A stretch of DNA of 64,000 nt from Candidatus Levyibacteriota bacterium. GTDB taxonomy: Bacteria; Patescibacteriota; Microgenomatia; Levybacterales; UBA12049. This document shows, one piece after another, positions 56,503 to 63,869 of the stretch. Every line of letters begins with the position of its first letter. Position 1 is the stretch's first letter. Under the pieces are notes generated by a model. It was not told the DNA's origin and searched no databases. It saw nothing but the letters and a program-made list of their open reading frames with translations. The DNA is taken from contig PJMG01000006.1 in NCBI GenBank assembly GCA_003173895.1, forward strand, positions 2,820 to 66,819, read 5' to 3'. Position numbers and translations under genes: made by a program.

Positions 56503-56540
56503 ATAATAACACCTATTATTTCAAAATGCAAATTATAGGA
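56503..56540 (-). promoter_or_regulatory. leaderless promoter with upstream TCCTATAAT box
   Basis: minus strand TCCTATAAT (56532-56540) TTGCAT (56526-56531), 17-nt spacer, TATTAT (56503-56508), 7 nt to the ATG. Confidence 0.55.
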
Positions 56541-56642
56541 TTAGGTTTATTTCACAGGATAAGTTTTAGCAAAGTTATACACCATTTTTTGTGAATGTTT
56601 ATCCCAATCTCCAGAAAAGGATGAGTGATTATGTTTAATTCG

Positions 56643-57515
56643 CTATTTTCTGATTGATCTAACCAGAGGATATCTTTCAGCGACTTGTGGAAGACTATAG
56701 GTTTTTGCTCGTAATGCTCTTATAAATTCTGGACCCCAAGGTGTTAATTCTCCAAGCCTAGTATCTTCATTATTTAAAACATTCTCTGAAAGAAATTTAG
56801 TTAAAAAAATAGTTACAATATATATAACTAAAGGATTACTAACTACATCAGGTAGAGAAACATCTAAGGGGCTTATGGGATGAAAGTCGAAAGGTAAACC
56901 TGTGACACGAGATACTGCGAGAGCTGTAAAAAGTAAAACTCCAGCTAAATCTCCTTTATTAATAGTTGTTAGATGTTTTATTCCAAGATCAGTTATTCCC
57001 TCAATTAAAGCCTGATTTATAACAGAAGCTCTGACAGCAGTATTTCTAAGAGTCTCATCTTTTTTATGAGTTTCATCATTTATTCTCTGTTGAACCAAAG
57101 TTATTACACCATTACCCCAACGAGCTCCATGAGGAATTCTTCTCTCATTCATTGCTTCTAACTCTGCTCTACTTATAGGTTTCTCACCTGTAGCAACTGC
57201 TTCACCTGTACCAGCATTTCCTGCTAATCCACTAATTTGTATGCCAAAATTATTTCTCTGTACATTTGTATCAACACCTATTGTAATTTTCCCTAAACCA
57301 AAAGATCGACAAGCAGTTGCCATACGATCAAAATCAATTACTATTTCCTCTGACATTTCTTTTGGAGCAATATTCGTTAACCCTTCAATTTCAAATGTAA
57401 TGGTTTTTTTACCTGGATCTGAAATTGTAATATTTCCTGCTTCAGTTAGTTCTCTTAATGTAAGGGTTCTTTGTTCTCTTAATGGGCCATTTTGTTCAGG
57501 TGAGGAATTAGACAT
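56643..57515 (-). CDS. orphan protein 10 (290 aa) with two C-proximal TM segments
   Basis: GDLAGVLLFTALAVSRVTGLPF and VVSNPLVIYIVTIFLTKFL hydrophobic segments. Confidence 0.6.
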   Translation of the reverse strand: MSNSSPEQNGPLREQRTLTLRELTEAGNITISDPGKKTITFEIEGLTNIAPKEMSEEIVIDFDRMATACRSFGLGKITIGVDTNVQRNNFGIQISGLAGNAGTGEAVATGEKPISRAELEAMNERRIPHGARWGNGVITLVQQRINDETHKKDETLRNTAVRASVINQALIEGITDLGIKHLTTINKGDLAGVLLFTALAVSRVTGLPFDFHPISPLDVSLPDVVSNPLVIYIVTIFLTKFLSENVLNNEDTRLGELTPWGPEFIRALRAKTYSLPQVAERYPLVRSIRK

Positions 57516-57521
57516 AGAGGA

Positions 57522-57559
57522 ACTTTACCAAAAAATTTTGGACATGTCAATTATAGGAC
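57522..57559 (-). promoter_or_regulatory. leaderless promoter with upstream GTCCTATAA box
   Basis: minus strand GTCCTATAATTGACA (57545-57559), 17-nt spacer, TAAAGT (57522-57527), 6 nt to the ATG. Confidence 0.6.
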
Positions 57560-57706
57560 AGTTTCTCTAAAACATATAAGTGTTTTTTTAAATAAAACTC
57601 AGATAATTGCTCCAGGCCAAACGAGTCAGAAATATAACCTAAGTTACATAGTATTTATAATGCTGTAAAACAAGGTGATTTTAGTACTGCTTTAAAAGAA
57701 ATAATT

Positions 57707-61791: not shown

Positions 61792-62418
61792 ATGAGTGAA
61801 TCTTTTAACCCCCATGCAGCTTATGAAAAATGGCGTCAATCTCTACCCGATTATTCTGTAGGCTTAAGAGGTCAAAGTTCCCAATTCAACGAGACTATTC
61901 TAGAACATGGTTTTGATAAACGCAGATGGTATTTTGCTATTAATCTTTCTGAACTAGATTGGGATGGGATGAGAGAAATTAGAGGAGAACTTCATGACTG
62001 GTTTGACTATTTAGTACGCTTTGGAAAAGAAGCTAGTACTAATAAATCAAGAGAAATTACTTTGGATACTCCAGAACAATGTTTAACTTATTTCAGTCAA
62101 CATCCTCAAGAGTATATATCACTTTTGTTATTAAAATTTCCTGGAATTAGAGGATGGTATCATTCACATAATATAATTAGAGTGAGCTTAGGCGGTGAAG
62201 AACAACAAACATTTCAACATAAACTCTCTCGTAACTTTATAGTTAAAGATCTTTATTTAAACCAATCAGACTTTGAAAGAGTGCGAGAGGAATTAGTTAA
62301 AAGAGGGTTAGATCTTAATGATCCGAAATATAAAGATATTATGACCAATAAACTTTCTCGTTTAATGTTAAGAAAAGTGTTAAGTGAAATAACACATCTT
62401 GAGAGTTCTGAGAGATAA
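61792..62418 (+). CDS. orphan protein 15 (208 aa)
   Basis: ORF with a consensus promoter. Confidence 0.6.
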   Translation: MSESFNPHAAYEKWRQSLPDYSVGLRGQSSQFNETILEHGFDKRRWYFAINLSELDWDGMREIRGELHDWFDYLVRFGKEASTNKSREITLDTPEQCLTYFSQHPQEYISLLLLKFPGIRGWYHSHNIIRVSLGGEEQQTFQHKLSRNFIVKDLYLNQSDFERVREELVKRGLDLNDPKYKDIMTNKLSRLMLRKVLSEITHLESSER

Positions 62419-62426
62419 AACAAAGC

Positions 62427-63044
62427 TTAATTAACTCCGTTTTTACCTTCTTTTATCATTATTATTGCGTAAGGTTGATCTTTAATTAAGTTTAATAATT
62501 CTGGATTTTCATAAAAATGAGCGCTACCCGCCTGTAAAATAAGTTTTCTTCTTAAATATCTATATCTGAATTTTCGTAAAGTATCTTTTATAGTAGCATT
62601 GAGTGAATCATTTCGTTGTAGTGCTTTTAAATTCGATTCTTTTTGTTTTTCCAAAGCTATATTTGTTAGATGTAACCTTTCTTGCATTGAAATTCCGAGC
62701 TCTTCTGATGCTGTAGTTGCTGCATTGGATTCTTCTTGTAAAGCGTCAGATTCATCGTATTTTTTTATATCATCCCACCCTATCGTTTTAGTCCCAAATT
62801 TTACTCCAAATTCTCTTCTACTTAATCTCCATGGATATCTTCTTCCTTTTTCGCGCCCTTCAATAGCTAGTAAATGTCCTAAACCAGTATGTTCTTTTAT
62901 TATTCTATTTTCATTTTGAACTGAGTCTGCGTCTTCATGATTAAGTCCAATACAAATAACTCGGGCTTTTTTAAGCGGAACGTTAGCTGAATAAATAGTA
63001 TATGCTTCTTGATTCATAGAGAAAATTTTATCATAGGATTGCAA
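62427..63044 (-). CDS. orphan protein 16: possible Tiki/ChaN/TraB-superfamily fold (weak)
   Basis: ARVICIGLNHEDADSVQNE..LLAIEG and LILQAGSAHFYENPELL resemble the GxxH...E / GxxH(L/F) motif pair of that superfamily; overlaps the upstream gene by 14 nt. Confidence 0.35.
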   Translation of the reverse strand: MQSYDKIFSMNQEAYTIYSANVPLKKARVICIGLNHEDADSVQNENRIIKEHTGLGHLLAIEGREKGRRYPWRLSRREFGVKFGTKTIGWDDIKKYDESDALQEESNAATTASEELGISMQERLHLTNIALEKQKESNLKALQRNDSLNATIKDTLRKFRYRYLRRKLILQAGSAHFYENPELLNLIKDQPYAIIMIKEGKNGVN

Positions 63045-63825
63045 TTGGATTACCTTCTAGATCCACAGGTAGTAAACCTTTTTTAATAAGCAGTTGAGCG
63101 GCAAATCTAAAGCGAGGTTGTAACAATTCGTATAAATATAAAGGAACTACGATAACTTCACAAGATTTTCCATTTGTAAATGTTAATGTATATTTGACAC
63201 TATTGGCTATACTATATTCTCCACGCCTTACCTGTGGTTTAGAAGTATAATTGAGTTTTTGATTTTCCACAGCCATTACTGGAAAGATATAGTAAGGATC
63301 TTCTGGAAAATGGCGTTCTTTGTCAGCTAAATCATATATAAAAGTAGTTAATCTGTTAAAAGGTCCTTTAGATTCACAGGTATACAATTCTGCTCGTTGC
63401 ACATTTTGTATACCTACATGCTTAGACACATGCTTAAAATATGCTTTATGCCAACCTCTTCTTTCTACTAAAAATGCTGTATTAGCCAGATCATGTCTTT
63501 GCCTAGAAGTAAAAGTACCGTTGAGATATGTTTGAACAGTTTCTTCATGAATTTGTTTTTCTTCGTCAGTAAGCTGAGTTAAAATCGCAGCTTCATGAAA
63601 TCCTGGAGCTTTAACATTACATATGGTTCTTATTCCTATATGATTCCCACTTAAATAATATAAGTCTTGTGTATCAGTTTGTATAGGATTATACTCTCTC
63701 TTTCTTCTCATCCCTAGTCGTAGCAGAGTTTCCCCCATAACATTAACTTCTCCTGATTTTGTTTTGAAAGGAGGACGCACATTACCTGATTCCTGATTTC
63801 TAATGAGAAATTCTACTAGTGGCAT
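63031..63825 (-). CDS. orphan protein 17 (264 aa), first gene of a two-gene operon
   Basis: ORF with a leaderless consensus promoter; 14-nt overlap with 62427..63044. Confidence 0.6.
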   Translation of the reverse strand: MPLVEFLIRNQESGNVRPPFKTKSGEVNVMGETLLRLGMRRKREYNPIQTDTQDLYYLSGNHIGIRTICNVKAPGFHEAAILTQLTDEEKQIHEETVQTYLNGTFTSRQRHDLANTAFLVERRGWHKAYFKHVSKHVGIQNVQRAELYTCESKGPFNRLTTFIYDLADKERHFPEDPYYIFPVMAVENQKLNYTSKPQVRRGEYSIANSVKYTLTFTNGKSCEVIVVPLYLYELLQPRFRFAAQLLIKKGLLPVDLEGNPIAIL

Positions 63826-63831
63826 GCAATG

Positions 63832-63869
63832 ATTTTAGGCTATCAATTCAAGATTGTCAATTATAGGAC
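63832..63869 (-). promoter_or_regulatory. leaderless promoter with upstream GTCCTATAA box
   Basis: minus strand GTCCTATAATTGACA (63855-63869), 17-nt spacer, TAAAAT (63832-63837), 6 nt to the ATG. Confidence 0.6.

Follow-up and report, generated by a model that had tools for sequence, protein, structure and literature searches.

What role does a short sequence play when it recurs, with almost no change, in the promoters of four neighbouring transcription units? This question is raised by a 64,000-nt stretch of a Candidatus Levyibacteriota contig (PJMG01000006.1, positions 2,820 to 66,819; hereafter the window), a piece of bacterial chromosome with a G+C content of ~31%. An earlier note had described a 9-10-mer shared by four promoters, and had suggested that it was a regulator site, an alternative-sigma site or an UP-like element. 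The sharing is confirmed, with a longer core than had been proposed: the box is 10-11 nt in length, has the consensus RTCCTATAATT and consists of the 10-mer TCCTATAATT with a purine 5' of it at each of the four sites. It is a real shared control element. A tentative case can be made that it is an operator, i.e. the docking site of a sequence-specific regulator other than RNA polymerase, conserved in the lineage; the first of the three suggestions thus stands as the best reading, although it is unproven.

A box within four promoters

The window contains four copies of TCCTATAATT, preceded by G, G, G and A, all of them where the earlier note had placed them (Table 1). The matches to the 10-mer GTCCTATAAT, at 57550-57559 (-), 61774-61783 (+) and 63860-63869 (-), and to the 15-mer GTCCTATAATTGACA, which is identical at 57545-57559 and 63855-63869, are exact, while the fourth site (56527-56540) reads TCCTATAATTTGCA. 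For the plus-strand site the position in the note, 61774-61783, is correct for GTCCTATAAT, but TGTCCTATAAT would occupy 61773-61783. All exact copies are co-oriented with the gene downstream of them, and they span 7.4 kb. Only 11.2% of the window is intergenic, and this is where 4/4 of the copies lie; the exact 10-mer is absent from the rest of the window. When the sites are aligned only the 10-11-mer is conserved, the flanks being without similarity.

The promoters to which these sites had been assigned were correctly recognised, with canonical hexamers, 17-nt spacers and a leaderless register. All four are of the form TTGACA/TTGCAT-17-TANNNT, and their -10 elements end 6-8 nt before the ATG; the mRNAs of the box genes are therefore predicted to be leaderless. 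What differs between promoters is the register of the box. It is fused to the -35 element at P1, P2 and P4 (about -44 to -36), with an overlap at P1 of either one base or two, according to the reading of the -35 element; it supplies the -10 element at P3 (-16..-7); and it lies in the spacer of the promoter from the related locus L156 described below (-32..-23). At P3 the box hexamer is 5-9 nt upstream of the transcription start, provided that this start is the ATG.

Table 1. Positions of the box copies, the reversed variants, the genes behind the box and the DUF11 loci from metagenomes
Feature	Position	Strand	Promoter elements	Remark
P1 box ATCCTATAATT	56531..56541	-	-35 TTGCAT 56526-56531; 17-nt spacer; -10 TATTAT 56503-56508; 7 nt; ATG 56495	last T is first T of -35
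P2 box GTCCTATAATT	57549..57559	-	-35 TTGACA 57545-57550; 17-nt spacer; -10 TAAAGT 57522-57527; 6 nt; ATG 57515	last two bases are first two of -35
P3 box GTCCTATAATT	61774..61784	+	-35 TTGACA 61755-61760; 17-nt spacer; -10 TATAAT; 8 nt; ATG 61792	its TATAAT (61778-61783) is the promoter -10
P4 box GTCCTATAATT	63859..63869	-	-35 TTGACA 63855-63860; 17-nt spacer; -10 TAAAAT 63832-63837; 6 nt; ATG 63825	last two bases are first two of -35
Variant box ATCCTATATTA	53697..53707	+		reversed; in leader between promoter and ATG 53664 of 52033-53664
Variant box GTCCTATATTA	53907..53917	+		reversed; overlaps stop codon of 53915-54301
80-aa ORFan	56253..56495	-		P1-driven
290-aa gene, product P0004	56643..57515	-		P2-driven
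208-aa ORFan	61792..62418	+		P3-driven
Two overlapping ORFans	62427..63825	-		P4-driven; 63031-63825 (264 aa) and 62427-63044 (205 aa)
DUF11 locus, L168	2232-2964	-
DUF11 locus, L179	12446-13150	+
DUF11 locus, L180	6230-6921	-

A slightly relaxed form of the box, RTCCTATAWTW, is found seven times in the window against an expectation of 1.24; six of the seven are inside one 10-kb block, and six of the seven are intergenic. Two reversed variants (RTCCTATATTA) flank the promoter of a 543-aa gene, 52033-53664 (TTGACA 53748-53753, TATAAT 53725-53730), which is a fifth promoter in the block; one of them, GTCCTATATTA, is ~190 nt upstream of this promoter. One-mismatch copies of the box show no intergenic enrichment (3 intergenic, 24 coding). 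One of these, CCCTATAATT at 6477-6486 (-), is upstream of the 205-aa gene 5809-6426, adjoining which Rfam recognises a DUF3800-IX RNA motif at 5737-5806 (+) (61 bits, E = 7e-11). The word TCCTATATTA occurs six times against 0.7 expected (2559, 18928, 34475, 36840, 53698 and 53908); four copies are inside genes and two flank the promoter of 52033-53664. Another word, TCCTATATAA, stands at 9039-9048 (+), 10 nt upstream of the -35 element of the promoter of 9095-9781, within a short inverted repeat GTTAT..ATAAC.

Both TATAAT and TTGACA are frequent where intergenic DNA is AT-rich, and the box might be a product of chance and composition, with the shared TCC a coincidence noticed only in hindsight. 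GTCCTATAAT is present three times against 0.26 expected, and at least three copies are reached in 0/100 dinucleotide-preserving shuffles; when all words are considered, shuffling the whole window yields 4-6 copies of some 10-mer with at least three G/C, and some 10-mer appears in at least four distinct regions in 11/400 trials with shuffled intergenic segments (family-wise P ~0.03). The recurrence of a 10-mer by itself is therefore only moderately significant. TCCTATATTA, furthermore, is over-represented even in coding DNA, and unconstrained searches with the 15-mer gave 36 random matches in a viral collection and at least 119 single matches in a genome collection, random or coding, with none from the source genome among the matches listed. 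The case for the box is carried instead by its clustering in 7.4 kb, its co-orientation with genes, its register within promoters and its presence in the related locus L156. TCC precedes 4/34 intergenic TATAAT against 0.3 expected (background frequency of TCC 0.0086), and the L156 copy is independent and exact. A chance origin is thus very unlikely, and the view of the earlier note, that a word recurring in this way in promoter context is not accidental, holds.

The related locus L156 and metagenome scans

That the box has a function, and one connected with these genes, is argued chiefly from L156, 18 kb of a Joint Genome Institute (JGI) metagenome contig with a G+C content of 38%. P0004, encoded by the gene behind P2, is the only box-gene product with homologues: P0015, encoded in L156, is 51% identical to it over 96% of its length, and a few others are 19-25% identical. 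This 290-aa membrane-protein family has no Pfam model, and the C-terminal half of its members is hydrophobic. P0015 is encoded last in an operon (1751-8025) that begins with genes for a VWA protein, a 406-aa protein and an AAA_5 (MoxR-like) ATPase, in an organism with the same leaderless promoter style. An exact copy of ATCCTATAATT is found at L156:1718-1728, in the promoter of this operon, which has the structure TTGATC-17-TATACT-7-ATG; the box takes in the final two bases of this -35 element together with the spacer's first part. From base composition, ~0.1 exact copies would be expected in the 18 kb, and the chance of a copy falling in that promoter is about 1e-3 to 1e-4. The two regions share no protein besides the P0004/P0015 pair. 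A weaker echo of the arrangement, CCCTATAG fused to TTGACA before the second gene of the operon, counts for little because the stop codon of the preceding gene falls within it in part.

Two features of a regulon motif are found, namely enrichment in promoters over coding DNA and retention of the site upstream of the operon of the P0004 homologue. The proposal that the box links a set of genes is borne out to this extent, by the copy in L156 and by the concentration of RTCCTATAWTW in one block.

The fusion of the box to a -35 element was also sought in metagenomes, in a scan constrained to the box fused to TTGACA and followed by a leaderless -10 element and ATG. This identified 31 loci, of which ~12 have a long open reading frame (ORF) starting at that ATG. 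A purine is found 5' of the box at 10/12 of the long-ORF loci (8/10 independent), compared with 0/10 of the chance-like matches. Among the long-ORF loci, L168/L184, L179 and L180 encode DUF11 surface proteins that are 26-51% identical, and their promoters all keep TATCCTATAATTGACAA, N16, TATAAT and a leaderless ATG; between L179 and L180 the spacer has diverged while the box fusion has been kept. L179 also encodes a DnaB with an intein, and L180 contains a second exact TCCTATAATT at 4596-4605. In a control scan of TTGACA promoters in viral contigs the box had 3 unique matches, compared with 1 and 3 for two scrambled 8-mers; a global excess of the box-plus-TTGACA fusion is therefore not apparent, and the 31 loci are near the level expected for any such 8-mer.

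These data bear on whether the -35-fused box could be an upstream strength element, either extending the -35 element or serving as an UP-like site of the proximal kind, with which the alpha C-terminal domain or sigma region 4 would make contact in very strong promoters; the copies at P3 and L156 would then have arisen by separate coincidence or simply be used as -10 elements. P2 and P4 share one register, from which P1 departs by 0-1 nt; the TATAA of the box matches the A/T-rich T-A-W-A-A that stands just 5' of the -35 element in the promoters typical of this genome; and R-TCCTATAA-TTGACA-17-TATAAT, in leaderless form, recurs in metagenomes with its 5' purine bias and is kept in DUF11 genes. 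However, UP elements are degenerate A/T tracts, while the box contains CC and is invariant in five identical copies; it is missing from the window's ~10 other strong TTGACA promoters; the positions at P3 and L156 mean that it has no fixed upstream location but at least three registers; and the viral-contig control shows no excess over scrambled 8-mers. A strength element is therefore unlikely, and the UP-like element of the earlier note, in its classical sense, is not supported.

A broader version of this idea would make RTCCTATAA-TTGACA an undescribed core-promoter element, read by RNA polymerase or a factor bound to it, in a broad range of uncultivated leaderless bacteria. Such an element would explain why the fusion has been kept both in DUF11 promoters of such divergent genes and in the lineage-specific genes of this genome, but it is rather improbable. 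One candidate for its reader would be the long N-terminal extension, ~440-470 aa, of the housekeeping sigma-70 protein encoded at 907-3153 (+), which is 748 aa in length. The 270 conserved residues at the C-terminus of this protein are about equidistant from their sigma-A counterparts in Firmicutes, Actinobacteria and Proteobacteria, which indicates that the organism is deep-branching.

Candidate readers of the box

No dyad symmetry or direct repeat was detected in or around the box, the only inverted partner being imperfect, 9 nt long and present at P1 alone. Nor is there a second motif nearby, as no k-mer co-occurs across the sites. The word AAACCTAATCCT, which adjoins the P1 box, was considered and rejected: elsewhere, at 8133-8167 (-) and 33750-33761 (+), it is the antisense of Gly-Leu-Gly-Leu coding DNA, and codon usage probably accounts for its coincidental agreement with P1. 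The spacer of P2 contains, at 57528-57541 (-), a 14-nt perfect palindrome, CCAAAATTTTTTGG, which could be a separate operator.

A regulator is the best candidate reader because the box is invariant, occupies variable registers that are nearly always within the RNA polymerase footprint, clusters in one block and is conserved in L156. With at least three registers and two reversed variants, a freely placed operator fits better than a fixed contact of RNA polymerase. The candidate regulator would bind the box, possibly as a monomer, given that the site is asymmetric. The copies are inside the stretch that RNA polymerase must occupy, at the edge of the -35 element, in the -10 element, in the spacer and in the leader of the 543-aa gene, so that occupancy would be expected to control initiation. 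At P3, in L156 and at the leader site the simplest outcome would be repression by occlusion, while at the -35-fused P1, P2 and P4 either repression or class-II-type activation might result. Both the regulator and the direction in which it would act are surmised from what can be observed directly: the box, its positions, its excess and its conservation near a homologous gene.

Several points weigh against an operator. Most bacterial regulators require dyad or direct-repeat symmetry, and the asymmetry of the box counts against one; five exact copies without degenerate relatives are atypical for a regulon motif; and the perfect -10 hexamer, together with the uniform orientation towards genes, invites an explanation based on RNA polymerase. 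The persistence of the box-TTGACA fusion in the promoters of diverged DUF11 genes from other metagenomic lineages is more easily understood with a universal reader, such as RNA polymerase. Comparative evidence comes from one related locus, L156, and searches with Pfam, NCBIfam and PADLOC found no DNA-binding regulator beside the box genes, either in the block or in L156. The predicted structures are too poor to use, with predicted local distance difference test (pLDDT) scores of 54 for the 208-aa protein and 41 for the 290-aa protein.

The box could instead be read by RNA polymerase itself, as a -10-type element that would work without a -35 element by virtue of conservation on both sides of the hexamer (-14/-13 being CC and -6 being T). 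It would be the sole -10 element at P3, and at P1, P2, P4 and L156 would form a second, overlapping promoter 16-29 bp upstream, whose effect would be an additional, leadered transcript or else competition with the leaderless promoter. The hexamer is a perfect TATAAT, which at P3 truly has the -10 position, 17 bp from a consensus -35 element, and the exact copies all have the orientation that a promoter requires. Among intergenic TATAAT, 7/34 are CC-TATAAT, and CCTATAATT is intergenic in 5/5 cases; a C is found just 5' of the -10 element in ~30% of the promoters of the house style, against a background of 16%. There is general precedent for such tuning by the flanks, as in E. coli sigma-S-type promoters the -13C/-14 flanks and a T-rich discriminator adjust -10 recognition, and conservation across lineages would be natural with RNA polymerase as the reader.

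Nevertheless, 4/5 copies have no -35 partner for their TATAAT, the best match being 2-3/6 at P1, P2, P4 and L156 and a consensus being present at P3 only, such that tandem promoters arising from the box are not convincing. In this genome the -35 element is informative: TTGACA is intergenic in 17/26 cases, against 37/136 for TATAAT, 99 copies of which are inside genes, and TTGACA is the discriminating promoter element. A -10-type element would also leave unexplained the near-identical fusion to the next -35 element in three promoters, and the two reversed variants do not fit it. The box does not have the form of the known extended -10 element (TGn), since the bases before the box hexamer are TCC and TG is not found at -15/-14; TG at -17/-16 is present in P2 and P3 only. 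No Shine-Dalgarno sequence follows that would serve a leadered mRNA, and the mini-ORFs that come after the TATAAT of the box do not agree from site to site. Hence this reading is a possible but doubtful one. A divergent promoter, with TTGTCA on the other strand, was likewise discarded, as by eye there is no -10 element at the right distance. A second case in which a -35 element directly follows a -10-like hexamer, head to tail, was observed at 50486-50496 (+), where CATAAT is fused to the TTGACA of the promoter of 50532-51203, with a plausible TTTACA upstream at 18 bp.

Two further possibilities, alternative-sigma promoters and an element acting at the RNA level within an intercistronic transcript, are extremely improbable. 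The genes are clustered and on the same strand, and the box copies of P1, P2 and P4 would be part of any RNA produced by read-through. However, the P3 copy has no co-directional gene upstream, predicted folds at the five box copies are no better than those of shuffled sequences (z-scores from -0.5 to +1.25), and the box sites have no match in Rfam. As for the alternative-sigma site of the earlier note, consensus hexamers of the sigma-70 type, 17 bp apart, are already present in these promoters, in the leaderless register of the house style and the same as those of ~20 other promoters in the window, which argues against it. The change of register between promoters is difficult to reconcile with either possibility.

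Box genes, genome context and known systems

The block in which the box is found (52033-64000, ~16 genes) contains no match to Pfam, NCBIfam or PADLOC, except for a cupin at 59539-59886. The P1-driven gene is probably the first of an operon with 55587-56219 and 54996-55583. No homologue among 5.8 billion proteins could be found for the 264-aa product of P4 or for the 565-aa product of a gene that neighbours the P2 gene (57707-59404), and a metagenome scan with an alignment of the 290-aa protein gave no matches. All-against-all BLAST of the block proteins revealed no related pairs; unrelated proteins, and similarity confined to the box, rule out paralogy or a duplicated promoter cassette. A phage or plasmid origin was also rejected, as megablast of phages, tblastn of plasmids, PADLOC and a search for viral relatives of the 290-aa protein were all empty. 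Elsewhere, the window encodes a PAS histidine kinase and a MacAB-like set of HlyD, FtsX and ABC transporter proteins.

The promoters of the block conform to a style seen throughout the window. TANNNT peaks 6 nt before start codons (14/72 genes), and ~20 genes have a TTGACA-like element, 16-18 nt, TANNNT, 5-9 nt and ATG, examples being 9059-9097, 14724-14765, 26143-26183, 38021-38059, 43802-43842 and 44803-44840; Shine-Dalgarno sequences are mainly found at internal genes of operons. A dispersed intergenic repeat was also observed, AGATCCTTCG-N6-CTCAGGATGAC with arms GTCATTCTGA/TCAGAATGAC, at 12386-12412 (+) and 40683-40709 (-), with related pieces at 12315, 13103, 13192, 22000, 33589, 42042 and 42108. 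This family has the look of a small repeat element, without any relation to the box.

As an operator, the box would define a first regulon, and would provide a testable DNA bait, for genes of a deep-branching uncultivated bacterium that have neither homologues nor annotation. It would also give a handle on which genes of the block act together, including the 290-aa family, whose member in a relative belongs with a VWA / AAA_5 operon. The box would further offer a defined case of regulation superimposed on leaderless promoters, whose entire control region is confined to the ~45 bp before the start codon. If it is RNA polymerase that reads the box, a new promoter element would be gained for lineages whose transcription signals are unstudied.

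Several known systems resemble the box in part. The marbox of MarA/SoxS/Rob is likewise asymmetric and orientation-dependent, overlaps the -35 element and is read without dyad symmetry; there too, one regulator can link unrelated genes, with an effect that depends on the position of the site. The marbox is ~20 bp and degenerate, however, while the box is 10-11 bp and invariant, and the resemblance is positional only; no AraC/XylS-family protein or other regulator was found by Pfam, NCBIfam or PADLOC in the block or L156. The operators of lambda cI/Cro, LexA and Fur are also placed in the RNA polymerase footprint in variable registers and are common to several transcription units, but they are palindromic or repeated and bind dimers, in contrast to the box, which lacks symmetry. 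The Fur/PerR 7-1-7 half-site TTATAAT resembles the CTATAAT of the box, at which the second half is absent.

Other likenesses are to elements of the promoter itself. The sigma-S-type -10 element (KCTATACTTAA) shares with the box a -10 hexamer that has C at -13 and T at -6, and conserved -10 flanks can lessen the need for a -35 element. By contrast with sigma-S-type and extended -10 elements, the box has C rather than K at -14, lacks TGn and is accompanied by a strong -35 element, and 4/5 of its copies are not in the -10 position relative to the start codon. The proximal subsite of an UP element is similar to the -35-fused box in being directly 5' of the -35 element (about -44 to -36) and in its A/T-rich TATAA; the box differs in its invariance and its CC, in its absence from most strong promoters of the window and in the other registers that it takes up. 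The MotA box of phage T4 is, like the box, short, asymmetric and inside the promoter upstream of a good -10 element, a position matched by the L156 copy, which is centred near -28. The MotA box is read by an accessory factor (sigma appropriation) and replaces the -35 element, whereas here a consensus -35 element is present, and there is neither a phage context nor a homologue of MotA or AsiA. The literature contains the 10-mer only in unrelated primers and sequences, and neither a description of the motif nor a paper on promoters of leaderless candidate-phyla bacteria was found. The motif, the host lineage and the target genes are new, while a shared promoter operator as such is of an already known kind.

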